DNA of 64,000 bases, taken from Phoronis australis (Eukaryota; Animalia; Phoronida). The DNA is taken from NCBI GenBank assembly GCA_002633005.1, contig NMRA01000013.1, positions 1,957,751-2,021,750 of the forward strand. The letters are read 5' to 3'. Numbering within the stretch: the first letter of the stretch is position 1; each line of letters starts with the position of its first letter. Below, one piece after another: positions 5,601 through 33,680 of this stretch. The position numbers were made by a program, and so were the translations under genes. The notes beneath the pieces were generated by a model. The model had not been told where the DNA came from and did no database searches. It saw only the letters and a list, made by a program, of their open reading frames with translations.

Positions 5601-8600
5601 AAATTCCCCTCATGGTCTTAACCTCAGACAATCTAAAAAATATATTCAAATCTTCCAACTTAAGTCATGAGTCCGCCAGATGGAAACGTCACAAACTGCC
5701 ACATACAGGTGTGCTGAAACCAGTTTTGCGTTATTTCGCTCTTGTGTATCGAATGAGCATGTTTAACACTATATTACACTGTTGTGAGAGATTAAAAACA
5801 TTGTTTGAGTATATACTTTTGTCAAAACTTAGGATTGGTCATGAAAGTCCCTGTTTGAATTAATTTCATGTAACATTGTAAAGTTACGACATTGTAGTGA
5901 AACGGAAGAGCTCTGAGCGAGTTAATTTCATATAGCACTAAAGCTGTGTTTGTCTTGTTTAGCTTGCTAAAAATTAAAATTATATTAGACCTTTTAGTTT
6001 AAAAAATTGGTCTTAATATTCCTTACTGTGATAGGATTCTATTTGTGTTGCCTACAAGAACATTGTAGATGACACATATATCGACACTTGAGTTGAGAAC
6101 GGGAATGTAATCCTATCAGGCTAAAGAGTATTATAAGACAAATTTTATGTGAGAGTAAAAAGCGGAATTAGATTTTCATTTTCAGCCAGCTAAACAAGGC
6201 TAAATGCTGAGCTTTTAGTACTATGCCAATTTAACTCACGCAGAGATATTGTTTCACTACAATCTTGTAATTTGAAGACATTAGTTAAAATCAATCGAAA
6301 CGAGGACTTTAATGACCAGTCATAAGTTTTACTGCAATTATATTAATTACTGGTAATTTTTTATCATTTGATGATGAGGATTAAACAAGAAGTTATTAAA
6401 CTAAGTTCCGTATTTACTAAACACGGACAAGACACTTCTTAACTCAAGCCCCATGCTGTGCAATCGGGTCAAGCCAAAAATGACTTTCAAACTTGAAGAA
6501 GGTAAAGTCTGACCAGATTAGGACACAAAATCGCGGGCTGGTGAAATTTTATTTTCTCATTGTTTTCATAAAAGATATTTAGTGTCAAAGTAGTGCTCTG
6601 CCATTTTCCAAGTTGCGTACCACAGCTATCACCGTATGATATTTTGAAAAATTGTGAGCATTCGCGGCAGTGTTAGAAGTCCTTGAAAATGAAAAAAGGA
6701 AATTTTGGAAATTGTTTTTGTCTGAAATGAGTTGGATTTTACCATAAATGAAGTGCTGTGGCAAATGATACCGTTAAAGTGAGCAAGGTATTACATAGAG
6801 TAGATAGTGTTGTCATGGGGAATTATGACCGCTAACTTTTCATATTAAAAAATAAAAAGAAACAAAATAAGGGTTCCACCCCTGAGTGAAAACCGTCAAT
6901 GAAGGTTTTTTAAAGATCGTGCTACACTCAAATGAATATGGATGTGCCTAAACATGCCAAGATTGCCTCTGGCCTTGGGTACAGTCAGTTAAATGAGTTT
7001 ACCCAAATAGGTTAAGATTTGTTACTCATTCCTGGCTTTGGGTATAGCGGAACATGCCGAGATTTACCGCTGGCCTAATGGGTACATTCGAATGAATGTG
7101 GTTAACCCAAATTTTTATTGACTTGAGATTTCTCAATAGTTTAGTTCAATCAAACCAATTTCCTTGTACTCAAGAGTGTATGTCAGTTGGTCTAACTGGA
7201 ATCCTCAGGGGCTCTAAAATAAAAGACCACCGACTTTTTTGTTATATTTTCCTTTTGGTGATTGAAGTATGTTCGAAATAGTAACACGTTTTTAATATGT
7301 TTAATGCACAATGAAAAGACTGTACTCAAGTGATTAGTCAAAAGACCATCTTGAATGTGAATATCCATGGACTTGACATTAACAACTATGACACACTTTG
7401 AAATCCTACCTTTTCCTGACATTTGAATATCGCAATCAACAAACTGTCGTGGGTAATTGAGTTGAAGAACACCTTGTGGTCTGGTGTAATGTAGGCGTAG
7501 TCGGTAATTATGAGCAGAATTTCTTTCCTCTTGCAGAGAGCTGAAGGGGGAAGGTATAACAATAATAATAGTAATAATAAATAACAAGAAAAACTTTATT
7601 TGCATCTCTTTTATGTTACGTACATACAGATAAAAACAGAGTCGGTGTGTCTTTCCCGACACGTTAGAGACCAAACAATTTATATTTAGAAGTACTGGTG
7701 ACGTCGGTACCTTGTAATTTAATGCCATTTATGGGCATTTGTGAGAACAGTCCCAATGTTTGTGTAGATGGCCTGTCCACTTTCATAACAAGTGCATTTA
7801 TTAGCTTACTGTATTAATGCAGACTCAGAATCTCCAAACTCTAGCTTAAGTTTAATTATTAAATCGAAATGAGAGTTTTAGATTTTACCGATTAAGTCGA
7901 TATGGCTTAGGCAGAAAAATGCATTATTAAAGTCACATTTTGATGACCACAACATAAGGTTCAAGTTCATAATTTAAATATCAAGTTTTTTCATAAAAGG
8001 TACGCATCACCAAATATATGCTTCATAATTATCAAGTTTGGCTTTGCCCTTGACAGGGACATTGAATTTGTAACTATAGTGAACGTAGTCTAAGTAGGTT
8101 TCTCGGAACTGCCAGGGACATTGAACCTGTAACTATGACCAACTTGATCTAGGTACATTTGTCGGAACTGTCAGGGACATTGAACCTGTAACTATGGCGA
8201 ACATGATCTAGGCACATTTGTCGGAACTGTCAGGGACATTGAACCGGTAACTATGGAGAACGTGGTTTAAGTACGTTTATTGGAACTGTACATTAATGAA
8301 GTTACAGCAAATGTAACTATGTAGTAAGTTTCTGAAAAGTAAAAATCTGGCTAATTTAATAAATATTTTTGTCTCCCAATTGAAGATTTTTCACGATAAG
8401 TAAGGCACTGAACAGCCGAATTACGTTTGTCTTGAGTCTATATTGAAGATTGGATATTTGGGCAAGTGGTTGATTGGATTAGACAGTTATTTTATTAGAT
8501 GGGACGGCACGTTGAGTAGTATGCTTTAATTCTTTGGGCCCGCATTCGGTGACAGTTACTTGTGACGTGGTTCAAGTGCAGGTATTAATCTGGTGTTGTC

Positions 8601-11600: not shown

Positions 11601-13830
11601 AAAATCTCGAGACCATGTCACATTGGTTGTGCTCTAACCAGTCGGTGAGTTTCTACTGGCTTGACACCATACGCTAACCGTCATTGCACCGTCTTTCAGA
11701 CATCTATTTCACAAATCTTGCGTCGACCCATGGTTGCTGGATCAGAGAAGTTGTCCTATGTGTAAGATGGACATACTGAAGGCGTATGGACTAACTGTGA
11801 GTTTGATTATTGGGCAGTTCTCAGATGATCCTTTGTTTCCCCTCGCTTCCCTCTGACCTGTATGTTGGCAGGTGGGCTTGATATTTTCTTTGTCTATTTT
11901 CATTTTTGGGATGTACGATGCTCCAAAAATATTGATTTCGCTTTTAACAATTGAAAGAAATCTTTTTTCCAGAATGCAAATACTGGCACGAGGGGAAACA
12001 ACGTAATTTTAATTATACCTTGTTGTGCCATTTCCTGTGATTTGTCACCTGAGAAAACAATTATGACTTTTTGATTTCACTAATTAAATATACTTAGGTA
12101 ATAATTGGACACCTGTGCTTGCGTCAGATTTCTGGGCAGAGCTTGGTTATTAACACCTGTGGCCTGTTTTATCAAATGTTGTTATGTCTAGTCTTAGATA
12201 AGACGGTGATTTAAATTTGCACACAATTCATTAACTTTATGCCTTAATAATGAACATTTGTCAGTTGCAATGTTTTACTATAATAGCATGAATATACACT
12301 GTCATATTTATATTAGTGTGTCTACGGCCATCTTGACTGCAATGGGACTGACGACATTTCGTAAAATGGTCCGCTGGTGTATTGAATAGACTGTGTGTAG
12401 TGTTCTTAGTGGAGAATGAGATTGCTGGGCAGTAAAAACGCATAGGTCATTCTCGTGTTGCGTTGACGATGTGAAACTTAATATTATGCTTGTAAATATT
12501 GACTTTTGGCATCATTTTGAAATGAGAAAACGGCAAATCTGGGTTGCATAAGACACCAAAACGTCTGCATCTGATGTTTTTGGTTATGCTGTCATATCAA
12601 TAACATTGCTTAACTTGAATGACATCATTGTGATCTTTCTAGTTAGTATTTAAGTTTATTTGTAACTCTGGAGAATAGTCCAAATTTGGCCTACTTTAGA
12701 AACATCATTTCTCAAAAATCATTGTTTTCCAAAACACTTTTTATGTGCCTACATAAACATAATATCATGTGATCACATATTGTCATCACTTTGTCCAAGG
12801 GTCTGGATGTGTGTGTCTGCTCAATATCTCATAAACCCCAGATCAGATTTTGTCGAAATTCAGCTTAAGAGTGTAGGGCATCATTAGAATGATTCGTTCC
12901 ACTTCTCAATCTGCCCCGTCCGACCAGGGTCAGGGGGAGTGGCTTTTTACGTAATTTTGGGCAAAGGGCATTTCTGGATGATATCGAAAGTACGTTGTTC
13001 TTGTTGAAATTCTTCTTAAAATGTTCCACTTTTGCTTAAGGGCCATAAAAGTTGGACTTAAGTATTTTCATGCCAAGACCATCATAAGTTGCATTTAGTA
13101 GACCCTAATTATTATTATTAGGTGACTGTAATATGGGTTTTGAGATTTAATCTTGCCAAAAGAAATGCCATATGTTTTCGACAAAGTTGTTTGTAATGAA
13201 TCTGCTTTTCTTTAATTTTTCTTAAAATAAATGACTGTGACTTAATTAATATCTGATAGCTAGGTATTGTAGCATTTCTGCTTGAAGAAGTATGAATTAG
13301 TGCTGAGTCAAATTATACAAGTTTTTAGATAATTGGCTAAATGGACAAATTGTGGATTATGTAATAACCTTAATAACGGAACAAGAACAGTTTATGGCTC
13401 CAAAATATGATTTTGTTTGTATGATTTTGCGAAATGTGTTGCTCAAAACAACACTTTTTGGTCACAGGTTCCTGGTGTGCCGGCTAAGACTGCTACGGAT
13501 GACCCTATCGAGATCACATCAACACAAAGTCCTGAGGATTCAGTTGATCCGATCCGTTCCATACACATGGTTCACGTTGAGTCTGGCGTCATATTCCACC
13601 ATCGGCAAGAGAGCCTTGGCTCTCCCAGCAGTAGCTGTAGGGGTGAACAGTTGGACGTGACGCGAAAACGCAACCCGTCCAGTGATAGCAATGCTAGTCA
13701 CTTGAGCATAAAGTCGCATGCATCGGGTTCCGAGTTGGAGTCATTGATTCACGTCAAGAATGCCTCTTTGAACTGCACCGTTGCTGACCAGGACAGCTCG
13801 GTTATAGCGACAACTCACACGGAGATTTGA
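2607..13830 (+). CDS. RNF150: PA-TM-RING-H2 E3 ubiquitin ligase (goliath/RNF130/RNF150 family), 3' five coding exons; 5' exons lie upstream of the window
   Basis: Exons with AG/GT borders and consistent phases: 2607-2851 (end of PA region plus TM helix [38 protein letters not shown]), 9246-9317 ([24 protein letters not shown]), 9697-9779 (CAVCIENF...VVRELPC), 11700-11796 ([30 protein letters not shown]), 13468-13830 (Ser-rich tail, TGA). The RING-H2 C3H2C3 pattern is complete. Exact paralog name is approximate. Confidence 0.93.
5821..6332. mobile_element. Degenerate foldback/MITE-like long inverted repeat in an intron
   Basis: AAAACTTAGGATTGGTCATGAAAGTCC pairs with GGACTTTAATGACCAGTCATAAGTTTT; inner pairs TTGTAGTGAAAC/GTTTCACTACAA, TTGTTTAGCT/AGCTAAACAA, TGATAGGATT/AATCCTATCA. 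Confidence 0.6.
8050..8290. repeat. Minisatellite, ~59 bp unit x4
   Basis: CAGGGACATTGAA..TGTAACTAT..GGAACTG recurs at ~8054, 8113, 8172 and 8231. Confidence 0.85.
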
Positions 13831-15330: not shown

Positions 15331-15415
15331 TACAGAGGTCCCGCATTTTGAGAACCAGTTTTCTCCACTGAAAAAATGGGCATTAAACTGGTTTTCAAAA
15401 CATGGGGCCCCTGTA
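15331..15415. mobile_element. Tiny Tc1/mariner-like MITE (hairpin) in the presumed 3' UTR
   Basis: TACAGAGGTCCC..TTTTGAGAACCAGTTT pairs imperfectly with AAACTGGTTTTCAAAA..GGGGCCCCTGTA; TA-CAG...CTG-TA ends. Confidence 0.5.
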
Positions 15416-17876: not shown

Positions 17877-19329
17877 TATTGTATTGAGGTTTGTGCAAAT
17901 AATAATAATACCAAACTGAATTACATATAAATTTTTAGTGATCATAAACATCTTCTGCACACAACTTATAAAGTAACCCACACACACAATAAACTACCCA
18001 AATTATGCACGGAATGTTTATTTTCCAACATATAAATCAAAAATGACGGAGTACAAAAATAATTAACATCAAATGATGCGTACAATGAAAAGCTGGACTA
18101 ATTCACAAGAAGGAGCTAATGAAACAACAGTAACAACTGTATTAGAGCATAGTTACATGCAAGTGGTCGCCTGCCACCACTGCTGCCCCCTGCTGTTACT
18201 GTGGGTCCTAAATGACTGCACTTGATTGACTTGTATCTCCGGATCACCTGGCTAAGTTATCTGATTGGTTTCCATGACAACTTCTGGCTTACAGACCAAT
18301 AAGATGCTTTATTAAGCTCTTGACCCAGCGGAGCTGACAAAAACGGTTGGTTCTGATCTAAGCATTTTTTGAAAACTGACATGATGGCACAGTAATTTTT
18401 AGGGTTCCTGATTTTCAAAAAGCCAAAATGAGTTGAGATCTCTTTTTACTGGTGCCACCTGATGCCACATAGACCAGGATCCTTTTGAGGTAAAAAAATG
18501 CCAGGTCATTATCCTGGAATACCGAGCAAATTCTTTCACAAAAACTAGCTTAGATACTCAAGTGTAGCTTTTGAAAGAAAAAGATGAGCTTTGCAAAGAG
18601 GACGCTGGCAGGCTTTTTTCGTTAACAGCAGTTTTCAAAGAGTAGAGCACAGACCAGACCAAAAAGAAGCTATTGGCCTCTAGTGCCATCTATTGTAGTA
18701 AATGTGAAGTCGTCCACTGAAATCACTAACATGACACGAAACTGACTGGCTAGCTGTCTCTGAACTCCAAATACTTCAAGTAACAGTAAAATCTCACCAA
18801 TTTCAGAGAAAATAATTACGCTTCTTACGTAATCACATACAACTACAACAACTGAGAACTACTATTTTACTTGTGTAACAATTGTGTCCAAAATTGGTGA
18901 GAATCTACAACCAACAAGTATTCACAAAATAAACAATTATTGTGATTAGACTTAAGAAACAGGCCAATACCTAGAAAATTAGTTTTGACTGAATAAGCCA
19001 ATTCCACAAAAATCATGTACACATAAAATTTCAATCACATAAAATTTCAATCATCCAACAAATTTAAACAAAAAGTGTCCACTGAAATGTACCCCATGAA
19101 ATGTAATAAAATTGACCAATCTTTCCCTGAAAATTCTATGAAATATCGTACTATTAACAAATCTGCAGTGACTGATCATGCTCTTGGTTTTTAGACATGT
19201 AATCAACAGGAATGATGCTCGTCCTGTTGAGTCTCAAAGTTCTAAGATTAACTGGTTGTGGAAAAAGAAACCAAAAGTCACTTTTAGACAAGGCACCACG
19301 TGGGGGGATCCCAGTGGTTAAACTACTCT

Positions 19330-19390
19330 GATTGGTCCTTATAATGAGGATCTTCTCTATATATAGGGTAGAAGACTCTAGTTTATACAA
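19330..19390 (+). promoter_or_regulatory. Viral left promoter P1 (putative)
   Basis: E-box CACGTG at 19297-19302, inverted CCAAT (ATTGG 19331-19335), TATATATA at 19358-19365; splice donor AG|GTAAGA at 19492 downstream. Confidence 0.5.
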
Positions 19391-19483
19391 CGCAACAGAT
19401 AAGTGAGGGCAAGGATTTCAAAATCAACGCGAAGTAAAGATTAAATAAGAATAACCGATACTTGTTGCTATCGCAACCGCGGA

Positions 19484-19518
19484 TATATAAGGTAAGACAT
19501 ATAAAATATTATTCAGTT
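19484..19518 (+). promoter_or_regulatory. Viral promoter P2 for the PLA2 ORF (putative)
   Basis: TATATAA at 19484-19490 with consensus initiator TCAGTT at 19513-19518 (A is 31 nt from the TATA start); ATG at 19523. Confidence 0.55.
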
Positions 19519-19522
19519 GACT

Positions 19523-20113
19523 ATGCCTCACATACCAGGACACAACTATATAGGACCTGGCACTGATTTAAGTAAGCAGTTACCTGCTGTAGATAGAGAC
19601 GACGAGATTGCTAGTACACACGATCATTTGTATAACAGTGCAACAAGTGAGGAGAAGGTGAGAAACGCTGATGTACGAGCGATAGGTGAGTTTACTAGTG
19701 ACTTCTTAAATACTGGAAATGCACACAGTGCTGTTGGAGCATTAGGTATTGGCGCAAAATATATCGTTGAAAGTTTTACAGGAGTGAAATATCCTCAAAT
19801 GTCAAAGAAAAAAGAACGTGATTTTGCTTCAAAAAAACTAGACTGGATTCAACAAGCAAAAGAATATGAAAAAAGAGGACAATATTACGGACTAAGACCA
19901 TCAGGCAATTATTGGCCTAACGGAAATCCAGTAACAAATCCTCAGGAAAGGATTGCAATTCAGACAAGAGCGGAAGAAAATAGACGTCGAGGACGATCTG
20001 GTCAGCCATTATTACCAATGCTTCAACAACCTGGAAAACCAAATTGGGATCCTCAAAATTGTGAAGAAATACTTGGTAAGTATATTTTTTCTATATTTAT
20101 AGATGGAGTCTAA
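19523..20113 (+). CDS. Parvoviral phospholipase A2 (VP1u-type) ORF
   Basis: Ca-binding loop PGHNYIGPG, catalytic helix DDEIASTHDHLY, AD motif, and densovirus-type continuation TGNAHSAVGALGIGAK..E..GVKYP, followed by basic KKKER. Intact; strong donor G|GTAAGT at 20076. Confidence 0.92.
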   Translation: MPHIPGHNYIGPGTDLSKQLPAVDRDDEIASTHDHLYNSATSEEKVRNADVRAIGEFTSDFLNTGNAHSAVGALGIGAKYIVESFTGVKYPQMSKKKERDFASKKLDWIQQAKEYEKRGQYYGLRPSGNYWPNGNPVTNPQERIAIQTRAEENRRRGRSGQPLLPMLQQPGKPNWDPQNCEEILGKYIFSIFIDGV

Positions 20114-20666
20114 AGTAATCGATCTAACTGCTCGTGAGGACAGTGACCAATACTTTGTGGTTCTTTCAAAGGAACACCTGTCTATCCAAAGAGATTTAGA
20201 CGAATTTTATGGAAACAACGGACAAGACCAAGAATGTCCTCAGAAACTGGACATATCAGCGACAGCTGCGAACGACATGGCGGAAACAATACAACTAATG
20301 ATGACGTGGGCATCTTGGCCAAACGTAGTACACGTGACGGAGATCGAAACGGGGATCAGCAGCGTCAATCTGAAAACAATACAAATACACAACAAGATGG
20401 CAGTGCAGGACACCACAATGAGACCAATGATGGAACACTGGCTGGAAATGATTCCGACATCGAAATGGTACAGGCAGCGGAGGCTTTTGACACCGGGAGA
20501 AATATCGAAAACAATGCAAGTCCTAGCCAGGAACGAAAGACTACTGGACAATCGTATATTGAAGAAGACAGATCCGAACAAGAGACGACAAAGTTCTTCT
20601 TCGGTGGAGGACACTCAACGCGACCACAAACGTACCAAACAGAACAATACAACGCAGAACAAGTAG
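20103..20666 (+). CDS. Viral accessory ORF overlapping the NS1 5' end (positionally p15/NS3-like), 187 aa
   Basis: ATG directly follows a pyrimidine-rich acceptor TTTTTTCTATATTTATAG (20102). The ORF is open and sits where chaphamaparvoviruses have p15. No sequence motif recognised. Confidence 0.65.
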   Translation: MESKVIDLTAREDSDQYFVVLSKEHLSIQRDLDEFYGNNGQDQECPQKLDISATAANDMAETIQLMMTWASWPNVVHVTEIETGISSVNLKTIQIHNKMAVQDTTMRPMMEHWLEMIPTSKWYRQRRLLTPGEISKTMQVLARNERLLDNRILKKTDPNKRRQSSSSVEDTQRDHKRTKQNNTTQNK

Positions 20667-22690
20667 AAACTGTAATGCGTACACACTGTATTGATCAATG
20701 GAAATCACTTGTAATTGCATTTGAGGATAAACATGAAAATTGTGACAGAGATATATTAGACGTAGTTAAGGAGATAGGAGCCTTAAAATACAAATCAGTC
20801 GTCGTTAAAGAAATTAGTCAACACGACGTAGTACACTTTCATATTATGATAAATTCATTTCAGCGTATTGACAATTTAAAACGTCAAATATCACAACATG
20901 TTTGGTCGAATGGTTCTCACAACTACATCATGAAATATATCAAAGCAGAATCTGTCAGAAATTTCACCTCATTATTCAAATATATATGCAAAGATATTCA
21001 TCAAATGTATAGTACTAACAACGATTTACTTGACTGTGCAGCCTAGTTTCAAACACCTGAAACAAACAAATTCATGACAAAACCTCAAAAGAAATCACCA
21101 AAAGAAATCATCAAAGATGAAGTCATTGAAAAAATGACCTCAACTGGTGTATATAATTTTGAGGACTTATGTCGTATAGATCAACAGTGGATGAGATATA
21201 GACTGCACATTCATGGTTTTCAAACACTGATTGACAATTGTCGTAGATTTGTACCCACTGTTAAGTCTAGTGAAGACGATCTATTGAGTAGATTTAAACA
21301 TGTTGCACCATCTACAACTTGAGCTGATAATATCCTCAGATATCAAGGTTATGACAAAGCGCAACGAATGCATATTTACAAAAATCTTGCTAAAATTCTA
21401 TCATTTGCAAATGGCAAAGTCAATACAATTTGGTTAAACGGTCCTGCAAACACTGGCAAAAGTTGGTTCGCTAGAGGTATAACAAAATGCTGGGGCTCAG
21501 ATGTAGGTGAAGTATTACCAGAAACTCCTCAATTTATGTGGGGACCATTGGTAGGCAAAAAAGTTGCACTTTTGGAAGAAATATATTTCAACACAGAATC
21601 TACTGAAAGAGCCAAAGTTATCCTAGAAGGTCAACCATGCAAAGTGAATGTAAAAGGAAAACAATGCGAGGACATTAGAGGTATGCCTGTAATTATAACC
21701 AGCAATCATAACCTATGGAGATGGGCAGACGGAGCAGAACAACCAATAATGGCAAGAGTATTCAAAATTATGTTCACTAAACAACATGTTGAAACTTCCA
21801 GACGAAGTAACACCTGTGAGCCATCGGGAAATGTTAGTCCGGGAGACTCCTTCAGCCAGACAACGACTAATTCCACTAACAAGAGGACAAAGACACCAAG
21901 CAGAAGCGGCAGCAACAGCTCGAGATATGGTGATAGAGATAGCACCAAACGTAGGCGATGTGAGGATGGACATGGTAAGAAACGTAGATTCAATGTTGAC
22001 AAGCTCAAGGACTCTCGCAAAGATGTCGGAAATGTTGACATTAGAGGATTCTACTCCATTAGAGGAGAACACTTGTACGGGACAAGTGGGACAAGACACA
22101 CACAGTACAGAATTGGCCCGGACGAATGCGATGAACGATGCTCAAGCGGCACCTCAACCGCAGTTGACGGGACCAGAAACACCGTGGAAAAACACGGATC
22201 CGGCACTACCGTCTCTACAAGAGAAATCATCAGCAACACAACTCAGATGCAACCTGGGCGACCAAGAAATGACACCTCAACAACGTCCGGAACCTTCCGC
22301 CTTACACCTAGCACACAACTTTCACGAACAAATATCCTCAATATCTGGGCTGAACGAGGAAGAGATATTACAATGGATAGAAGATGTACAGATGATGTGA
22401 ACAGCGGAAGGAGGAGATCAAACGGGGGAACCTCCGACAAAGAAACGAAAACAACTACAAGCTCTGCCGCTAGCAGTGGAAGATCTGCTAGTATCTGCAT
22501 CAACAGTAATGCTATTTCACAAGAGTCTGAAAGGAAAAATGACACTTGCGTCGAAGAAGTGCACAAGAGCACAACGTCGAGTACTGGACATGGTTCACGA
22601 TCACGTCGCATCATTGCTAAAGGACGAGAAACACTTGGGAGTGTAGAAAGCTTTCTGAGTGCATTATATCATATACATTCGCGCGAGTAG
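20234..22690 (+). pseudogene. NS1: Parvoviral NS1/Rep (818 codons) interrupted by two in-frame stops
   Basis: ORF-track pieces 20234-21046, 21074-21322 and 21368-22690 are in one frame, with stops TAG 21044-21046 and TGA 21320-21322. HUH motif VHFHIMI, YxxK motif KYICK, Walker A GPANTGKS, Walker B ALLEE, B' KVILEGQPCKVNVKGK, motif C PVIITSN. Confidence 0.93.
21786..22646 (+). pseudogene. NP/NS2-like ORF overlapping the NS1 C-terminus in another frame, with one probable premature stop
   Basis: 204 aa open to TGA 22398-22400. The same frame then stays open for 81 more codons (includes NLS-like PPTKKRK) to TAG 22644-22646. Position matches the chaphamaparvovirus NP ORF. Confidence 0.7.
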
Positions 22691-22705
22691 GAGGACGAAA
22701 CCAAG

Positions 22706-24283
22706 ATGCCGACACAGATATTTAAACATTCAAGATCTGTATATCTGAAAGAACGGGAAAAACCTTATAACAAACAAGCATTCAACGCAGACTGTTACTG
22801 GAGTTATATTCCAAATCAATCACCAGCACTATTCAAAAATTTTGGTGAGCTATTTGCAACAATCAAATCTGCAAGAAGATGGAGAATCCTCAGTATAAAA
22901 GGAACATTGTCTAACATGGTACCACTGCAACAGAAACTAACAATTGGAGGACAAGAAACCATGAACTTGTTCAACAACGCGTACTACTTGATGTGCTATT
23001 CAGATGACCTCAAAGAATGGGTACACTGTAAGTACGATAAAACAAGAGACCTGTACAGCAATGGATGGCAACCTGGTTTTTTCACAGATGGATGCACGTA
23101 CGATCAAAACGGAACAAATGTTAAGAGACTGCTGTTTCCAACAATGCCAAAATATATTCCTCCACCAGGTTTTTTCGAACTAACGAAATACATGAGACCA
23201 GATCCTCTAAGACATCCAGAGAGAATAGGAGAACTAAGACCAGGTAAAAACTCCTATACATTTTCTTTCAAATGGGACCACAGCAAAACACCTGGTGAAG
23301 GATGGGTAGACATGTACTGCAGAGCAAACGTATGGTCAAACAGAGGACAAATAGCAGGAGAAAACATATCGATAACTTACGACGATCCAAATCTATACAG
23401 AATACCAGAATGTTTTGAACCTAAAACTCAGGCGCTATCAGACGACAGAAACTATACAAATGAAACAGATACAAACGAATTGGAATGGCAACAAAGCATG
23501 AAATGGCAATCGAAATCTTTCACCAAACTAGTATTCGGAGCGAACTCAGGCGTTATATGGGCACAAGCAGAAAAACACCAACAACCAAAACAGTTGGCAA
23601 AAGCAAAACAAAATTACGAGTGGCTTAAAGCACGAAAATACGGCGACAGAAATCACCAAGCTGAAGCATTTGCCTATGGAGGAATCGGAAGTTATGAGCC
23701 TCCAGACACATGGATGATATCATTTCCACTACTTCTAGACGGAGACAACGCATCGATCAAATTATCAGCGCAAGCATTCTATCAATCAGAATGCGTAATC
23801 GAATGGGAACCACTGTCACATGACAAACATACAAACTTATATCCAATAAACAGTCAACTCCTATGGTCAGCATTCGAACACAAAATCCGACGATACACCA
23901 ATACAGGAGATGCAGCATTGTTAAACTGCGTCGACTTCATGCCAATGAACAGAAACATACAGATCAACTCAGCGGCTATTCCAGGACACAATCCAGCAAC
24001 ACATGAAGGCGTCAATATAAATTACGAAACACGATACTTAGAAGTACCACAATACGACAGTGTCGGAGGACATATCGGCGTAGCAAACACAACATTAGGT
24101 ACTAGTAAGTGGATACATGATAACAAAGCTAATACAATTTCTTCTAATAAACGAAGACTGTCTACTAAGGACGTATTCACTGAACAGAAACCAGAAGCTA
24201 AAAAATGCAACAACAGCGATTCAGATCACGATGGTTCAGACTGCACGAGCGACGACCAGGGCAGCGAACATGGAGACCACTAG
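22706..24283 (+). CDS. VP: Major capsid protein, chaphamaparvovirus-like, 525 aa, intact
   Basis: Motifs WSYIPN, SNMVPLQQKLTIGGQETMNLFNN.YYLM.YSDDL, DPLRHPERIGELRPGKNSYTFS, P.TWMISFPLLLD match chaphamaparvovirus VP signatures (WHIIPN, NP.P.T.QLAIQG...FTAFNN..Y...Y.D.L, WDPL..P..I.ELRPGKNA..F). No N-terminal PLA2 and no Gly-rich stretch. Confidence 0.9.
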   Translation: MPTQIFKHSRSVYLKEREKPYNKQAFNADCYWSYIPNQSPALFKNFGELFATIKSARRWRILSIKGTLSNMVPLQQKLTIGGQETMNLFNNAYYLMCYSDDLKEWVHCKYDKTRDLYSNGWQPGFFTDGCTYDQNGTNVKRLLFPTMPKYIPPPGFFELTKYMRPDPLRHPERIGELRPGKNSYTFSFKWDHSKTPGEGWVDMYCRANVWSNRGQIAGENISITYDDPNLYRIPECFEPKTQALSDDRNYTNETDTNELEWQQSMKWQSKSFTKLVFGANSGVIWAQAEKHQQPKQLAKAKQNYEWLKARKYGDRNHQAEAFAYGGIGSYEPPDTWMISFPLLLDGDNASIKLSAQAFYQSECVIEWEPLSHDKHTNLYPINSQLLWSAFEHKIRRYTNTGDAALLNCVDFMPMNRNIQINSAAIPGHNPATHEGVNINYETRYLEVPQYDSVGGHIGVANTTLGTSKWIHDNKANTISSNKRRLSTKDVFTEQKPEAKKCNNSDSDHDGSDCTSDDQGSEHGDH

Positions 24284-24957
24284 TACTATTTGACGGAATC
24301 GCCAGAAGTGAACTCAACACTGAGTACCGACGCAAACGATGGAACCAATTAAAAGACTTTGTTAATAACACTATTGTACCTAGATATGGCAATAACGAAG
24401 AATACACTGCCTTCATTGTGCATGATTTTTGGAAAGAACAAAAAAATGCAATTGAGGATATTGTCAACCAAACTTGTAATCCAGATATATATAGACGAGT
24501 ATTGATATACGTATCAGATATGATATACTATGAACACGGTTCAATGTGGAACTATTATATGTTCAACATATTTTATGAGGACATTGAAAATTTCTTACAA
24601 CATGTAACTAAAGAAATTAGACACGATGTAGCTACAATATTTAGAACATTAACAAAGTGTGAAGCTGTATTTATAGATGAAGACTTACCAATACATGTAA
24701 TTGATGAAATGATAGATGATATTATATGGAATAATTCTGTAACTTTACTCAGTAGATTGAAACAGAGATTGAGGAACAAATATAATTACCACTCAAGAAA
24801 CTTTGGGGTGCGAATGATCAAAATCGTACGCAATTGGTCCCTTCGTGACTGTTTCTATCATAGAAGAACAGGACGTCGATTACATGATGATGCTGTAGTA
24901 GATAGATACTTTGAACTAGATGAGGACATTTACAGACATATTAACCGGAGAGTTTAA
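24205..24957 (+). CDS. Orphan viral ORF downstream of the capsid, 250 aa
   Basis: Intact 753-nt ORF overlapping the VP end by 79 nt and ending 44 nt before AATAAA. Viral-like base composition; Arg-rich termini. Confidence 0.7.
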   Translation: MQQQRFRSRWFRLHERRPGQRTWRPLVLFDGIARSELNTEYRRKRWNQLKDFVNNTIVPRYGNNEEYTAFIVHDFWKEQKNAIEDIVNQTCNPDIYRRVLIYVSDMIYYEHGSMWNYYMFNIFYEDIENFLQHVTKEIRHDVATIFRTLTKCEAVFIDEDLPIHVIDEMIDDIIWNNSVTLLSRLKQRLRNKYNYHSRNFGVRMIKIVRNWSLRDCFYHRRTGRRLHDDAVVDRYFELDEDIYRHINRRV

Positions 24958-25001
24958 TAGTTTATCTTTGTAACTGTATGAATTGTACTTGTATGGATTC
25001 T

Positions 25002-25007
25002 AATAAA
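25002..25007 (+). terminator. Viral polyadenylation signal
   Basis: AATAAA after the last viral ORF, preceded by repeated TGTA elements. Confidence 0.7.
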
Positions 25008-25176
25008 AATTGTCCTCACTCTAACTGGCCTTGTATATACATGAGTCTTCCACACTAATTAATTATATGACGTCAAAATGACATCACAAGTCACATGATC
25101 CATGTGTTTCTTTAATCGGGCTCCCGTGGCGCCATCTAGCGGTTCTACGTCATGTATATATTCCGTCTATATTATC

Positions 25177-25231
25177 GGTCAAAGGTCATCTGCTTAAGCG
25201 CGGTTACCGCGCGAGCGGATGACCTTTGACC
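25177..25231. repeat. Parvoviral right-terminal hairpin (telomere remnant)
   Basis: GGTCAAAGGTCATC (25177-25190) is the perfect reverse complement of GATGACCTTTGACC (25218-25231). Inner stems GCT/AGC and GCGCGG-TTA-CCGCGC with an asymmetric TAA/G bubble. Confidence 0.85.
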
Positions 25232-25807
25232 AAAGTAAAAGTTGGCTTGAATGTAGCAGTTCAAAATGCCCACTGCAAATACCCAGAAAGTAAAGGTTCA
25301 CATAGCACATGTAAGCATGCAAATGCATTGTTGAATAATTTGATCTGCATCCGCAGTCACTGAATATTCATTTCATAGAACTGTCAAGCTACCTTACTGG
25401 TTAACACAATGTTTGAGGTTAACCCTGTAGCCAAAACACTGGATTTATTACATAAACAGCCTAATTGTCAACAAAACATAACCATAACATATTTTTGCGA
25501 ATCACATGTCTTGGTGCAGCATTACTAAGCCAAAGCAGACCTTCATGAATCATTTAATCCTAGAAAGCTAGAAAACACAAAGTTTGAGGTGTATAGACAA
25601 TACGAGGGATTGTCAGAAGCTATCCAACAGAATATAGTTGTGCTTTTAATTAAGTTTGTGTTAACGAAGGACTGCTACGTAACTATACTGATTAAAAAGT
25701 CTGCTTAATTTTGATTAGAAATTCATCAAAGGCTAATTTTGTGCTCTCATTACTTCCATGACAAAGAAAGGTGTGGTAACATAACGAATCCTAATGGGAA
25801 ATGAAAG

Positions 25808-26086: not shown

Positions 26087-26654
26087 TGTGTGTGTGTGTG
26101 TGTGTGTTTGTATTTGCGTCAAAGTCAGGACCTAAACTTGTTCGCACACCAACGACGTGAGGACTTTTTTCAAAGTCAGGACTTGCACTCGAGTCCTCAC
26201 ATCGACATGGCTATTTTCCTATAATTTACGATGCCACTTTTCAAAATTTGTATTTTTGAGAACGTCCCCAGATAGTCGGAAAAAATCTAACCTTGAAACA
26301 CACGTAGCACTGTTTCATCTGCCTTTGTGTTCATGCACACTATTGACTGAAAATTGTGCTTAAAGTTAACCAATAGCAAGACGCCATACAATGGTCATAC
26401 AATGCAGCCAATCAGAGAAGCCGATAGAGATCCCAATGTAAGGTGTCGCTTCAGTCGTTAGCAAATGGTTGCCAGCATGGCATCTCGAGGAAAGATGTTG
26501 GTAAGTTTTGTACTTCTTGGAAAGGATGACTTTTAAGGAATCTCCCGTGAACTATGCAAGTAACTTCAGTTCTAGCAAATCTTCTTATGCATGTCATACT
26601 TAGACATAATCTCGGACTATGAAAGGTCCATTGGTTGGTAATCTCGCTGCTCTC

Positions 26655-27543
26655 CACACCTGCCAACCCATTTTTGTTGAAAAGAGGTAGGTTTGCTAAT
26701 TACTGCGCGTGTGCCGAAGGCACACGCGTATCTAGGGGGGTCCGGGGGCATGCCCCCCGGAAAATTTTAGAAAAAATGAAGCAAAATGGTGCAATCTACT
26801 TCATTTTAAGACCACAATTAAGTGAAGAATTTAATCATATTTTGGAGAGAAAAAAACAAAACTTCACAATGAAACACATCACAACTCTTTTATTTTTGGC
26901 TGTTTCGTTGAGCAGAAAGCCGAAGTGATTTTCGACGTACCCGCGACCGCGCGACTGTTCCCAACGTGCTTGTCCGTTTTTGCATTGCGTGTCGTGCAAC
27001 GTCAAAACTGCCGCCGTGATAGAAAAGTCACAGCGGCAATTGTTGCAATAGGCATGTTCCTCGCCTTTGCGGGATGGCTTGACAAAACTGAACTGGCTTT
27101 CCAAACTTTTTTATACTTGTTCGTCCACCGTTTCTTTTTTCTCTGGTGTTTCCATCATAGACCCTTTGGCACTTGTACCAGACGAGAAAGAAGCGACCAG
27201 ACGAAAAAGTACTTGTTGTTCATTAATTGGTCGAAACTTTGAAGGTAACATGCTGACAACCAATCGCCGACGAGATAAGAAATCAAGACTGTACATCATC
27301 CGGGCCTCCCATATAGTTTTGATATCGTCCGTTTGGCTTCGCTAAAGTTTGTTTTAGAAGTTTTTGCAGGAGCGCAGCGGTGTTACAGTGACAAAAGCGA
27401 GAATAAAGCGGACAAGATAACTTTTTATTTTTCACCAACAGCAATTTTCAAATGCGGTAGGTTTAACTACTAAAAGCGGTAGGCGTTGAAAGTGACCCAA
27501 AAGCGGTAGGCTACCGCGAAAAGCGGTAGGGTTGGCAGGTATG
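26655..27543 (-). mobile_element. Non-autonomous hAT (hAT5-like) element with BED-finger remnant
   Basis: 15-bp TIRs CACACCTGCCAACCC / GGGTTGGCAGGTATG (1 mismatch), 5-bp TSD CTCTC on both sides, subterminal GCGGTAGG repeats, minus-strand FVKPSRKGEEHAYCNNCRCDFSI. Confidence 0.8.
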
Positions 27544-28142
27544 CTCTCGTTCGACGATCGATATTAAAAAAATGGGAAATCAGTAATCACTTGATGCGAT
27601 GGGGGACCTGAGCTACATGTCCGGTGAATAACGACACTTGTCAATACCCCAGCTCTGACGAGTGGCGTAGTTCTACTTCTAATCTGAAATGTGCCACCTC
27701 ATCTTTTGTGGAAAAAGTCGGAACCCAGGCACTTTTTAAACAGTGTTAAATGGTGACATATTCCTATAGTCATAATGTCGAACCAGCAACCACTATTATG
27801 GATTGGCGATTGGATTCCATTTGGGGGTCAGGTTGTCCCAAGCAATGATATCCATATGTCCTTGGCAGACTTGTGTGTGCAGGGGTCCAGTCTTTATATC
27901 AGTTAGCGAGCCCATACTTGCCACTAATAGTCCCACTTCTGGCAGGACAGTCCCATTTTTACAGTTAATATAAGTCAGTATTTGTTAGCTGTGTCCCACC
28001 ATGAGTACAGTTCTCCACAAGGATTACAAAACAAACATGTCTCGCTTTCTGTTTAAAATTTTGTGAAAATGTCCCGCTTATGGTAATTGAATGTCGTAGG
28101 AAAGTTCCTATGTTTTCACATCTGTAATTTAATTTGTTTCAG

Positions 28143-31100
28143 GTCAAAACCAGCCTAGGTAGCAGACCAAAGGTAAGTACACCATGCTACAACTTTTAAT
28201 GGCTATTTGTATTCGGTTCGACTGATTTCAGATTGAGATTTCTCAATATTTTATTCACCAATCATATCTAGACTTCTTTAAAGGCCAAATTTATAATTCT
28301 ACTTTTCACTACTCAGAGATACACAACACTTTATACACTGTTATCTCTTGAATCAGTTGCAGTCCCCGCCGCCCTTGACACAGGGAAAATTCTCCAGTTG
28401 TCATTTTGGAGTGGCAAGAAAACTCCACTCAAATGTTCAAATTTCAGCTGAAGGTGCCATTCAAATTAGCATTCACAAAGACGGAAGCAGTTGGCTCCAC
28501 TAGTGTGTACAAAAAAGTTGACGACCAAAAAAACGCTGTTCGTTCTTGATATTAAAGTAAATTATAAATCGGTTGCGAAGGTCAATTAATTAAATAATTA
28601 TAAATCTGGTCATGCAACCATATTAAGTTTATATAATTTTATAGGAAATAAAGTTCACGTGATGTGACTTAATATGGTTGCATGACCAGATTTTATAATT
28701 ATTTAATTAGTTGTTCGTTCATGTTATTCCATCTGGTGTACTGGTTCCAGTGGTGTGATCGCTAATTTGAGCGACAACCATGCAAGCGTTTTCGCAGCCA
28801 ATTACGCTGTTCGTACTCATTATTCCGCCAGGCGTACTGCTTCCGTTGGTGTGCACGCTAATTTGAACAGCATTCTTTTTAGTCGACTGAGCTTCGAAAC
28901 CCAAGTCGAGTCAGTCAAGTGAGTACAATTTTGGAGTCGAATTCCCAAAATTTGAGACAAATTCTCGAACAAATGGTCGCTTTTTTCGATGGCTGCCCCG
29001 TATTCTGTCTTCACAAATGCGATAAGGGAAGGGACAGATTTGGATAAATCTGATTTTATAAACTGTTGATTAGATTTAAAGTTAGTCTGAAAGAGAACTT
29101 GGAAAATGTTGCCTGTATGTTTCAATTCCCCACTCAATACTTCTGCCTATTATCCTATAGTCTGTATTTGTCCTAGGACTTAGTAGCTTGCTTAAATTTT
29201 TGTTTTCATCTTTTAGAGAATGTCCCCGAAGAATACTGCAATATATTACTGTAAAGCAGGACTAGATCAGGAAGGTTTAGAGCAAAGATATATATCCAAG
29301 AGAAAGGGTAAGCTTTAAACTTGTAATATCATGCACATAGTTGTGATTTAAACGTCAACAAACGTTGGCATTGATTATCCAGTAAACGTACGGCTACATT
29401 ACAGCAAGTAATAAACTGGAATTAAACTGTAATTAACAATTTCTTGAAAACGCGCGGGAAATCTGTCACACGTGACCCGCTACGTAAGCCCAGGTTTCAA
29501 CTGGCTGATGTGACTATCGCATTGTGTGTTGCTCAAATGTAGTCAGTTCGTGATCAGCTTCTATGCCGTGTTCGATCGGGTCTCTGGACTCCTAGTCTTC
29601 CTTCTTGTAGTCTGAATCTTCCGATAACGGTGTGGCTTCATCAATATAGCGATCACATGTTGAGAAATATCTTAGTCGCACTACTTCTGAGTCTAACGCA
29701 ATGTGTTTTAGCCCTGAGCTTGCGTCAAATCTAGGTCACACGGTCAGGTCAATTGGTTGTTTTGTACCTCATTTCCTAAAGATCCGATCATCAGGGGGAA
29801 TAAGTCTAGTTTATTCTCAGCGAGCCGACGTCGTTACCATGAAAGGGGTTATTTTAAAAATATAAAACTACTAATTTTTGGGTTTTTGATGACGGAAATT
29901 CACTTAGTGATGCATTAGTAAGTATATACATTAATTAGACTGCCAGACAGTAAAATGTGTGCAAGTAGGCCTTTCATTAAAATGCTCTAAAGTATTGTAA
30001 CGAACAACTGTTCTTCTGCATTTGAATTAATCTATCAGAATCCCTCCAGGGAGGAGGCAGTCTCATTCTAATTCTCAGGCATTTTTCAGCCTTGTTCCCA
30101 TTATTATGAATTAAAAGTTTTCTTACAAAATGAAACTGACTGACAAGGGTCTAGTTTAGTTGCCAAATTTGTAAAAGTGGAACATATCATATGAACTTTG
30201 CATTGTAAAAACATTGACTATGCATGCTGTCAGTGTGTTCAATGCTTTTGTATAGGGGATGTGGGGGTACTCTCCCTGAAAGTTTTGAAAACGAGGTTTT
30301 GGGGAGCATTTTGTTCCTACAGAATATGCACTAAAGACTTTGGACCCTCTGTCTCTCTTTAAAGTATTTGAAAATGATTAGATAAGTTAATGAGTAGAAA
30401 ACTGCTCAATATTTTGTAATTGGTTTGAAGGAGTTTTTAAAGCAGATTAGATACAGTGGTTTTTTAAGATTAGAAGGAAGGGGGATCACTTTGAGACCGT
30501 AGGGGAAATTTTCAGGTAACCAGGGAATTTGGTCCGATTTTGAAATTTTTTTGATGGGCACCTGCTGCCTCTATGTGGCACATGATTTCCAATTCAACAC
30601 TGTACTAGTAAGGGCCCTGAATTGAGTAAGAAACAATTTACAGTCATATTCCGTGAGGCATTACTTGTTGTCTGTTAATACAACTCTCCCTTTAGGAGTA
30701 ATTTATTAAAAAATCAATCTCGTTAAAATATTCACAACATTTGATGCCCTGACTGCTTTTTGGGTTTCAAGATAGCCATCTTTGATTTTGATAAGAAACT
30801 GAAGAACCTATAAACTGACATGTTTCACATTTTCAGGGTCATCTGTTTGTATTTCATTGCTCATTGTCATTCTCATTCATTATCATTGTATTTATTTATT
30901 TATTGTATTATTTTAATGAGGACCATCGGGTAGATAAGCCTGCGTGCTTACTGATGTATTATGTATTTATGTATGTATTTATTATGTATCCTCAATAAAT
31001 ATTGTTCACACTGACCATATTGAATTATTATATTTTAGGAATTGGTGTTTTTGCCACACAGAATTTTGAAATGGGCGATTTCCTCTTGGAATATGTAGGC

Positions 31101-33286
31101 GTGTTGCAACTGGAAGAAGAAAAAATGGATTTCTCATTTACAAAATCTCCTTATCCAAGATGTTATACATATTACTTTCGCTACAACGAGAAGAGTATGT
31201 GGTGAGTTGCCATCATTCTATATTCATACATTGGGCCTGTTCAAGTTCGTAGTTAGTGTTAGTGTTAGTGTTAAGCTGGTGTTGTGTCTTGGTTGTTAAA
31301 AAGTAAACAAATTCAACTGTCCCCCATTGTTCCATTACAAAAGCTATCATTGTGGTTATCTTTGGTTTCACACAACTCTCAACGTTTCGAGTAATTAAGT
31401 TAAAACTGTTCAACTCCATGCTAACACTAAGACTAACACCGAACTTGAATTGACTCAATGCAGGCCTACCAGACTTTCCCGCTCTCGATCACGCTCGGCC
31501 TTCTCAAAATCAATAGTTACAGCATTGCATGGTCCTGTACTGTAAACTGTTACTAGTATGGGGACAGTTATAGCACACAGACGTTAGAGACATTTAACCT
31601 TATTAGAACTTACCTGGGTGTATTTTGAAGTATAGCACAATTGTCTTGATGTGATGTGTTGTTCTCTTTTGCCCTATACATGTGCCATCTGATTTTATGA
31701 GAACTTCTTTGTGTATTCATTGCAAAACTTTGTGAGTGCATCATTGTGAGGACTTTTTTTGAACACACTTATTTGGTCACCGGTTTGATATGTGAGGACT
31801 TTAAGGTAATTGACTACCAAGTCGTTGATGAGGCTTCACCATACCAGCATGCGTGAAAGCCCTGCCATAATGGACCTTGTCATGATGCTGCTGTGCATTT
31901 CTGTTTAGTTTATATTGTTTGATTTTTTACAGCCTTGATGCCAGTAGAACTGTAGGACGGCTTGGGCGTTTAGTAAATGATGCAAGAGAAGGAACAGAAG
32001 AGTGTAACTGTAAAATGAAAATTTTGGTAGTTGGCTCACCACGTCTAGTTTTATTTGCCACCACGGATATTAAAGCTGGAGAAGAACTGCAATATGATTA
32101 CGGTGAAGATGATGTTTGGTGGAGACAGAGGGTAAATTTTGATTTAGTAAACTAAAGAATATTACAAATTGAGCTAATATCTCATTTAATGTTGTGTGAT
32201 CTTTTGGGTTTAGAAAGTAACAATTGCACCTTATGAGCATATGGGCAACAGTTTCAGACAACTGATAGTCGAAAGCAAAATTTGTGTGCAGAGTTGCACC
32301 AGTGAGAAAGCAAGAAAGACCTAACTTTTTGGTTGCACTAACTTTGTCTGACTCTTAATACTGTTTTTCTACTTTACAGCGAAACAAAGTCTATAGATTT
32401 TACTAGCGGTTAATTCATAACAACTAACTGTAGTTGATTTTTAAGTCCCTTGTTTTATGCGTTTGTTGGTTACTTTTATAAACTGCAGATTCGGATTTTA
32501 TTTCTCAATGCTTGCTGTTTTTCACCAGGGTGTGGTGGTGGTATGACTGTTAAATACAAGAATTTCAGCAAACGCGTCTGACAACTTAAAATGTATAATG
32601 TAACTTTTCATCATTGAGTCATCTTGTGTTACTTTACTTTTGAATGTATAAAATTTTGTCAATAATGCCATTGCCCACATGTCATCAAAAATGAAAATCT
32701 AATGTCAAAGGTGAATTTATGAGTTATAATTTGTTTGCTGAAATCATCAACTGTTCTTTCAGATGGAGCCAAATCAAAGTGACATTGAAGATAATGACCC
32801 TTTTGATATATACAATAAATCTGAAGACAATATTGTTACAAATAGTGGTGATGACGGAGAAAACGCTGTCTGTGATGTTGGGGGTGATGGGGGTGATGAT
32901 GCTGATGATGGTCAGGCTGATGGTGATGGTGGAGGTTATGTTGAGGGTTTTGTTGGTGATATATGTGTTGGCAATGGAAAGGAATGTCATGATGATATTA
33001 TCAGTAAGGCAGATGATGGGGATAGTGTTAGTGATGATGGTGACTCTAACAGCAGTGACACACCTAAGGTTCTTAAAAATAATCATGGCTTTGACTATGA
33101 TGACTGTGACAGTCCAGTTGATACTAAGAATGTGGAAAGTTCTGAAGGCTTTAGCAGCAGGAGCAGTGATGTCGATTGTGATGATGAAGACATGGATGAA
33201 GATTTTGTGCCTTCTGATGGTGGAGGTTCTGCATCTTCTGATATTGGTTCTGTTTGTGGTGATGCCAATTCTGACCTTGTATGCTG
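28143..33286 (+). CDS. Spliced SET-domain (PR-Set7/KMT5A-like) protein with acidic tail, transposon cargo; truncated at an assembly N
   Basis: Phase-compatible exons 28143-28172, 29217-29307, 31039-31201, 31933-32131 and 32763-~33286. Motifs GIGVFAT..F..GDFLLEYVG, CLDAS...RLGRLVND, NCKMK, RLVLFATTDIKAGEELQYDYG; Asp/Gly-rich exon follows. Confidence 0.8.
28583..28713. repeat. Near-perfect hairpin/MITE
   Basis: AATTAAATAATTATAAATCTGGTCATGCAACCATATTAAGT pairs with ACTTAATATGGTTGCATGACCAGATTTTATAATTATTTAATT. Confidence 0.75.
31229..31460. mobile_element. MITE in a SET-gene intron
   Basis: CATTGGGCCTGTTCAAGTTCG plus TTAGTG repeats versus CTAACA repeats plus CGAACTTGAATTGACTCAATG. Confidence 0.55.
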
Positions 33287-33351
33287 NGAACTCGTATTCC
33301 ACTTTTTGAACTCGTATTTACGAGTACATACTCGTCTATTTCGAGCCCTGG

Positions 33352-33680
33352 AGGACATGGCTATATGTGCTGTATAACATTGTGAGGACTTAGTTTTAAC
33401 ACACTGCGTGTGTTAGCTACAATATGAGGACATCATGGCTATATGTGCTGTATAACATTGTGAGGACTTAGTTTTAACACACTGCATGTGTTGGCTACAG
33501 TATGAGGACATCATGGCTATATGTGCTGTATAACATTGTGAGGACCTAGTTTTAACACACTGTGTGTGTTAGCTGAAATATGAGGGCATCATGGCTATAT
33601 GTGCTGTATAACATTGTGAGGACTTAGTTTTAACACACTGCATGTGTTATCAGCAATATGAGTAACATTATGAGGACTTC
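33352..33680. repeat. Minisatellite, ~78 bp unit x4
   Basis: ATGGCTATATGTGCTGTATAACATTGTGAGGACTTAGTTTTAACACACTG repeated four times; each unit carries the GTGAGGAC motif of the host element ends. Confidence 0.9.

Follow-up and report, generated by a model that had tools for sequence, protein, structure and literature searches.

A 64-kb window of the Phoronis australis genome (contig NMRA01000013.1, positions 1,957,751 to 2,021,750 of the forward strand; all coordinates below are those of the window) contains at 19290–25231 an endogenous parvovirus of ~5.9 kb. The reading favored here, to which we assign a probability of roughly three in four, is that a large monosense parvovirus, equipped with NP and a capsid protein (VP) of hamavirus type, left an inherited, broken and likely recent copy in the chromosome, and that the separate 5′ PLA2 of this virus likely came from a densovirus and was likely produced as a protein apart from the capsid, in line with the proposal for the megaparvoviruses (PMC13426907; this and the other published comparators are cited from the part of their text that was available). 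It is carried by the content and homologies of the open reading frames (ORFs), the chromosomal integration, three internal stops, a PLA2 of densovirus-type sequence and RNA of a single orientation over the locus.

ORF calling places six ORFs on the plus strand between 19523 and 24957 (Table 1), in agreement with the six co-oriented viral ORFs of an initial annotation made from the sequence alone, and the locus has the features of an endogenous member of the Parvoviridae, namely an NS1 with HUH nuclease and superfamily 3 (SF3) helicase, a single jelly-roll capsid protein and integration in host DNA. The extra genes claimed for both ends are likewise present, PLA2 on the 5′ side and ORF6 after VP, and none of 1000 mononucleotide shuffles matched the length of the PLA2 ORF or of the part of ORF6 that does not overlap VP. 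The count of three stops, two in NS1 and one in NP, was reproduced; the absence of frameshifts holds for the window allele but not for the allele of another sample, which carries an extra 1-nt insertion within NS1. No second parvoviral piece was found elsewhere within the window, and no Rfam match in the stretch.

Table 1. Features of the parvoviral element and extent of the RNA over it.
Feature	Position	Strand	Remarks
PLA2 ORF	19523–20113	+	196 aa
ORF2	20103–20666	+	187 aa; overlaps NS1 N-terminus; basic patch at C-terminus
NS1 frame	20234–22690	+	818 codons; in-frame stops at 21044–46 and 21320–22
NP frame, overprinted on NS1 C-terminus	21786–22646	+	ORF 21786–22400, stop 22398–22400, frame then open to 22646
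VP	22706–24283	+	525 aa
ORF6	24205–24957	+	250 aa; 79-nt overlap with VP end
Left end, candidate promoter region	19290–19522	+	CACGTG 19297; TATA-like 19358 and 19484; donor-like GTAAGA 19492; full telomeric hairpin absent
Left arm of degenerate inverted similarity	19364–19442		pairs with 25057–24981; 58/81 columns alike
AATAAA, candidate polyadenylation signal	25002–25007	+	motif match
Inward-facing TATAAT and TGACGTCA palindrome	25057–25075	-	outer end of right arm; candidate mirrored promoter
Right terminal hairpin	25177–25231		55 nt; z = -6.25, 0/200 shuffles as good
RNA-covered stretch	18168–25515		one strand, unspliced, ~1 kb into left flank

The NS1 frame contains the HUH motif HFH at residue 201 and an SF3 helicase with the Walker A sequence GPANTGKS, and it matches PF01057 (E 5e-24) and, below the cut-off of that family, PF23343 (E 1.5e-4). 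It is 22–29% identical to eight hamavirus NS1 proteins, and its helicase is 32–42% alike to those of hamaviruses. In the helicase tree the query sits on a long branch outside all 8 hamavirus, 15 densovirus and 24 Parvovirinae-like rows; support for its position is 96/94 with respect to the sampled Hamavirinae, with which a sister grouping was not rejected (p-AU 0.37), and 98/93 with respect to the densoviruses. This tree leaves out loci L014–L016 and four papillomavirus rows, contains neither three invertebrate subfamilies nor the megaparvoviruses, and labels unnamed loci by subfamily according to their layout and clustering. The initial assignment to a Hamaparvovirinae lineage stands as far as the divergence of the lineage is concerned, which is apparent in both the VP and the helicase trees, while the helicase does not fall within the eight Hamavirinae sampled. 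A word-indexed protein search, limited to longer proteins, returned no match to the helicase among 159 candidates, and no close relative of it was found in viral contigs or in 33 of the 64 parts of a metagenome scan.

The last 300 aa of NS1 form a low-complexity tail rich in S, T, R and G that is overprinted on NP. The third-position composition of the NP frame is viral, therefore it is the NS1 tail that is the overprinted frame. A hidden Markov model of five fetched hamavirus NPs matches the overprinted ORF at E 1.9e-5 as the top of 697 window segments, scoring 19.0 bits against a maximum of 8.5 in 1000 shuffles, and the ORF is thereby upheld as a true NP homologue. The p15-like label given to ORF2 did not survive: the resemblance is one of position, and p15 profiles from three or four fetched genomes, small enough to leave room for distant homology, gave no match, nor did any Pfam or PHROG family or any ORF of the 57 fetched loci. 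Besides these, metagenome contig L015 carries at 3606–4647 a fragmented hamavirus-like helicase together with an NP match (E 2.5e-12) and is possibly another endogenous viral element (EVE).

Sequence and predicted fold both point to a hamavirus-type VP. The capsid protein of SsChPV (9NEK) is matched at E 3e-13 by sequence and is the top Foldseek match (E 1.4e-14) of the AlphaFold2 model, which has a pLDDT of 59.9 and a strand at residues 3–15. The jelly roll is predicted to begin at Met1, PLA2 is absent from the protein, and the long C-terminus is of low confidence from residue 399 onward. A HMMER search of 1.84 billion proteins gave 46 matches, none below 1e-30; among the 20 that were looked up, six bear virus names, all of chaphama- or ichthama-type, so that the chaphama-type capsid of the initial annotation is retained. 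The best match, P0002 (506 aa, on a 5592-nt Logan contig), is 26% alike over 401 aa and has the motifs RxYGDRN and YExP in common with the query. In the VP tree, where each has a long branch, these two group together (100/99) apart from the 39 other rows; six short or off-family matches (P0016, P0017, P0027, P0030, P0037 and P0045) are omitted from the tree and five of them from the alignment too. A word-indexed protein search found no match to VP among 2699 candidates, a locus scan of metagenome contigs yielded no close relative, and the Atlas search returned generic ssDNA capsids only. Among the fetched loci the best VP match (E 1e-16) belongs to L012 (1204–3991), a 4.1-kb metagenome hamavirus that groups with the SsChPV-like locus L001.

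The PLA2 ORF retains an intact YIGPG calcium loop and the HD...D catalytic residues and matches PF08398 (E 1.3e-6). When it was compared against 41 PLA2-motif loci, the nine best matches were densovirus-like VP1-unique regions (45–51% identity over ~90 aa, a span that takes in the GIGAK helix at the C-terminus, E 1e-19 or better), whereas Parvovirinae-like PLA2s matched at E 1e-6 or worse only. It is without the Parvovirinae GxNPY insert, clusters with 16 densovirus rows in the tree and, as in densoviruses, lies at the start of a terminal ORF. The domain is thus of Densovirinae type and likely came from a densovirus; in the Densovirinae themselves, however, PLA2 is found within the capsid protein or spliced to it, and the NS1 and VP described here are not densoviral. 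The closest database protein is P0001 (167 aa, 57% over 45% of the query), which is encoded on a 3937-nt Logan contig. A PLA2 locus scan of viral contigs gave no close relative, and in no case among the 57 fetched loci does a PLA2 ORF precede NS1 in the same orientation.

Near the end of the PLA2 ORF lies a strong donor-like sequence (TTG/GTAAGT at 20076), which would suit a structural role in which PLA2 is a VP1-unique domain spliced to VP across a long intron in the manner of the split-VP ambidensoviruses; AdDV with its split cap1/cap2 provides a precedent (PMC10267136), and the authors of the megaparvovirus study left splicing open (PMC13426907). Such an arrangement is nevertheless improbable here, since by hand analysis the donor is in phase 1 whereas the AGs between 22690 and the VP start are without exception in phase 0, and since a phase-0 donor at 19658 would cut the PLA2 domain ahead of its second catalytic Asp. 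Moreover, the VP model opens with the first core strand, and hamavirus VPs are described as having no N-terminal extension in the available text of PMC12115719. Because no acceptor ahead of the VP start is in frame with the 20076 donor and VP opens with a core strand, PLA2 was most likely a free protein. The same hand analysis also noted a pyrimidine-rich acceptor at 22311 that would join this donor in frame to the C-terminal part of NP, with no read support.

ORF6 is viral, because its third-position and codon composition is viral-like and because it lies inside the polyadenylation signal and the right hairpin. Pfam, PHROGs, Atlas, PDB, BFVD and IMG/VR contain no usable homologue and the locus scan of viral contigs no close relative; the term orphan is provisional, as the largest protein searches covered VP, the helicase and PLA2, not ORF6 or ORF2. 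PHROG matches were obtained at E 4e-4 and 4e-3 over 48–59 aa, and Atlas matches to MULE at 0.82 were rejected as lying below the lead threshold. The AlphaFold2 model has a pLDDT of 40.8, hence the fold search, without a match at E 0.001, is uninformative. A small precedent for its position is the 17-kDa ORF overlapping the VP end of turkey parvovirus (PMC6631224). A TATAAA at 24016, ~190 nt 5′ of the ORF6 start, is a candidate internal promoter.

The terminal hairpin proposed by the initial annotation is confirmed at the right end. At the left end there is no more than a weak stem of 24 nt (z = -1.94; 6/200 shuffles equally good), so that the telomere on this side is either lacking or of another kind. 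The host-virus border on the left is resolved only to ~19220–19295, host repeat reads stopping at 19191 and the observed/expected (o/e) CpG ratio climbing at 19250, and no clear target-site duplication was found, only 5–6-mers. What had been overlooked is that the ends are mirrored: the inverted similarity between the two arms has a local alignment score of 55, which none of 1000 shuffles reached (maximum 38), and it is the longest inverted repeat too. The TATAAT and TGACGTCA sit immediately outside the right arm; the outer ends are unlike each other, the left one being possibly truncated. The AATAAA was found as annotated, and for the two candidate promoters TATA-like hexamers were recovered at the left end, motif matches that leave these promoters candidates.

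For the question of whether the element is part of the chromosome, eight public runs were considered, of which five contain words of the stretch and four contig runs were compared (X1 and X3 come from one sample, S1, and X4 from another). Contigs of X1, X3 and X4 cover the element and bridge the right junction from the hairpin into host DNA, and the left junction is bridged by record 18 of X4, a contig spanning 19148–21241. Both host-virus borders, at which the initial annotation had wished to see spanning reads, are therefore bridged by independent short-read contigs. Run X5 of another study (32 Mb) covers the flanks without the element and was not counted as an empty site. Alleles differ from the window by 0–0.24% inside the element as compared with 0.34% in the left flank, lesions vary between them, and three RNA runs of a separate 2026 study match the element. 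CpG o/e is 0.87 inside the element versus 0.56 and 0.62 in the flanks, and the three stops translate, if neutral, into 0.9–1.0% divergence (0.2–3.0%). On the strength of the bridged junctions, the allelic differences, the RNA in a separate study, the CpG contrast and the ~1% divergence, the element is inherited host DNA, young and not a chimera, and the near-complete integrated parvoviral fossil first annotated is supported by the bridging contigs and the separate RNA. That the assembly joined a free virus to host DNA might be argued from the small number of lesions, from the repeats in both flanks and from the ends of X1 and X3 contigs at 19177–19240, close to the left junction. It is already largely refuted and hardly credible in view of the bridged junctions, of stops shared by alleles that differ at single nucleotides, of a depth resembling that of the flank (a weak measure) and of same-strand RNA that runs from the virus into the flank.

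In all three RNA runs, which belong to one study, reads cover each of the 17 bins inside the element at a mean depth of 3–4 (range about 1–9), 98–100% of them in one mate orientation and none with a splice joint. Cover rises leftward and ends near 18.2 kb, it stays at ~1 to the right of the hairpin, and minus-strand AATAAA words are found at 18313 and 18022. With the usual stranded protocol, this mate orientation corresponds to minus-strand RNA, antisense to the viral genes, and the RNA is probably a long antisense one, the library type being unspecified. Whichever strand it represents, it is a long read-through transcript and not a spliced viral mRNA set. The host might have co-opted the locus, either with the long, probably antisense RNA feeding antiviral small RNAs or with selection keeping PLA2, ORF2, VP and ORF6 intact: one-strand RNA runs along the whole element in all three runs, four of the six ORFs are intact with all three stops in NS1 and NP, the element occurs in at least two DNA and three RNA samples, and a densoviral EVE in a psyllid yields piRNAs (PMC7527727). 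We regard co-option as unlikely, since the depth is low (about 3–4 for 1.6–1.8 Gb of reads), selection cannot be demonstrated from just three stops, read-through from neighboring host DNA explains the RNA, and the psyllid piRNAs are reported, in the text available, not to be required for virus targeting (PMC7527727).

The closest published counterparts are the megaparvoviruses, an unclassified clade of uncertain placement beside the Hamavirinae that comprises SwaBA-MePV-1, 10 related viruses and complete EVEs in eight beetles (PMC13426907, July 2026). Their genomes of ~6.4 kb are described as having a 5′-most PLA2 ORF whose end carries a splice donor, a second, functionally uncharacterized ORF, an NS1 of 561–611 aa, a hamavirus-type VP of 504–577 aa and likely inverted terminal repeats (ITRs), and their NS1s are only 18–50% alike among themselves (PMC13426907). 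In the literature searched, which lacked most subscription journals, the term megaparvovirus was found in this paper alone and the full six-ORF order not at all. Judged by the published description, the element would work like a megaparvovirus: it shares the large monosense genome (5.9 kb compared with ~6.4 kb), the stand-alone 5′ PLA2 ORF with an end donor, a second unknown ORF by position, and NS1; its VP lies within the same size range, has no PLA2, opens at the first core strand and ends in a long C-terminus; and both have a helicase of uncertain placement and near-complete EVEs. The gene order called unusual in the initial annotation has thus already been described as regards PLA2, unknown ORF, NS1 and hamavirus-type VP, while NP and the post-VP ORF differ from that description (PMC13426907); as to whether a described genus has this order, the precedent is partial, and the megaparvovirus clade is not a classified genus.

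Several points weigh against the reading favored here. The likeness to megaparvoviruses is by description only, and the descriptions differ in that NS1 has 818 codons here, 300 of them in the overprinted low-complexity tail, versus 561–611 aa; in that a 250-aa ORF follows VP, whereas VP1 is the last ORF in SwaBA-MePV-1; in that a degenerate mirrored end of ~80 nt (58/81 columns) stands in place of ITRs; and in that NP is present, which the available text of PMC13426907 does not mention, although it allows for smaller ORFs and its Fig. 5 maps were not visible. Support in the PLA2 tree is moderate (80/82, not starred). No viral-sense splice joint occurs in the three RNA runs, so that the expression scheme remains a prediction, and the RNA polarity has to be read with unspecified library strandedness and without a control gene. 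The assembly may have been made from S1, in which case X1 and X3 are not independent support, and the age estimate presumes neutrality and that the ORF ends are not premature stops themselves.

The same differences leave room for a second, more tentative placement, in which the element is no megaparvovirus and belongs to a separate deep lineage that made its own capture of a densoviral PLA2 module, the third beside those of AdSDV (Acheta domesticus segmented densovirus) and the megaparvoviruses. NP is kept here, the word is absent from the available text of PMC13426907, and NP is reported lost in beetle EVEs (PMC6631224); NS1 is of ichthamavirus-like length (the L001 frame has 820 codons); no named megaparvovirus is among the 20 of 46 VP matches looked up; and VP pairs solely with P0002 (100/99) outside the 39 others, the helicase being on a long branch of its own. 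In contrast, the position of PLA2, its end donor, the second unknown ORF and the VP size are more simply explained by shared descent, and a long branch is to be expected where NS1s are 18–50% alike (PMC13426907). Furthermore, long-branch attraction may unite the query with P0002, and the megaparvovirus paper mentions smaller ORFs, the Fig. 5 ORF maps being outside the text available. A separate deep lineage is accordingly possible, though we would not bet on it. More doubtful still is its fullest version, according to which the element would represent a lineage of subfamily rank in its own right, with P0002 as sole known sister and no near-complete genome before this one. Such a virus would have kept the ancestral hamavirus NP, acquired a densoviral PLA2 module along with its terminal promoter in an event separate from that of the beetle megaparvoviruses, of which the mirrored ends would be the trace, and gained a new class of post-VP gene, and the host would now transcribe the whole fossil antisense as inherited antiviral RNA.

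With the Hamavirinae (formerly Hamaparvovirinae; Chaphamavirus and Ichthamavirus, the latter including SsChPV, and arthropod chapparvovirus EVEs, PMC6631224) the element shares the VP family with ELRPGKN and FNN..Y, the monosense layout, an NP overlapping the NS1 C-terminus and a small ORF overlapping the NS1 N-terminus. Those genomes, however, are described as ~4–4.5 kb long and without PLA2 (PMC13426907, PMC6631224, PMC9896142), compared with 5.9 kb and a PLA2 here; p15 is unmatched, the helicase is outside the sampled clade, and apart from the 17-kDa ORF of turkey parvovirus no large post-VP ORF is known from the sources available. The element is not a Chaphamavirus, because size, PLA2 and p15 all disagree. 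A parallel for the PLA2 itself is vpORF3 of AdSDV, a non-structural densovirus-derived PLA2 absent from capsids (PMC10267136). As in the element, a densovirus-derived PLA2 is there a separate ORF in a lineage otherwise lacking it, but AdSDV is a bipartite brevihamaparvovirus with PLA2 downstream of VP and a capsid of another family.

Parvovirus biology and the layout suggest that the source virus had a linear monosense genome replicated by NS1 from hairpin ends through a rolling-hairpin mechanism. The left promoter would drive PLA2, and spliced or leaky-scanned RNAs would yield ORF2, NS1, NP and VP; PLA2 may have served in soluble form during entry or egress, and ORF6 would be a viral accessory gene. 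If the virus captured the end of an ambisense densovirus on which the capsid gene lies, this would supply the PLA2 and at once account for its densoviral type, terminal position, end donor and the mirrored ends. The whole linear genome would then have joined a germline chromosome with loss of the left telomere and drifted by ~1% since. Transcription now reads through the locus and yields a single long RNA, unspliced and probably antisense. The copy cannot replicate itself, both NS1 and NP being broken. The megaparvovirus authors call for intermediate viruses to place the PLA2-bearing viruses with hamavirus capsids (PMC13426907), and this genome, which combines a hamavirus NP with a megaparvovirus-like 5′ PLA2, would either root their clade and reveal NP loss there or indicate that densoviral PLA2 was captured more than once as a free protein. 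As an EVE it ties the lineage to a definite host, its low divergence suggests living relatives, and PLA2, VP and ORF6, being intact, lend themselves to individual study. It is less surprising than initially held, since the core layout and complete EVEs of that layout are already published (PMC13426907).

Around the element lies animal DNA, in which there are spliced genes for a kinase and a RING protein. A RING-H2 finger exon lies to the left of the element at 11665–11853 (+), and a spliced gene at 53979–62680 (-) comprises Ser/Thr/Tyr kinase exons (PF07714) and ends in a 307-codon exon without a Pfam match, which we take to resemble a WASP-family GBD tail and WH2. Tandem arrays occur at 61771–62067 (27-nt units), 41835–43347 (~450 nt), 33278–33662 (78 nt) and 8051–8286 (59 nt), and short high-copy host repeats in both flanks at 15337–15400, 18781–18817, 19148–19191 and 25630–25680. 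A block from 26122 to 30000 and beyond, found on a 9.86-kb contig, has ~7x the flank depth in X1 and X3 and is probably a multicopy mobile element or a duplication, to which SET-domain pieces at 30999–32152 (+) may belong.

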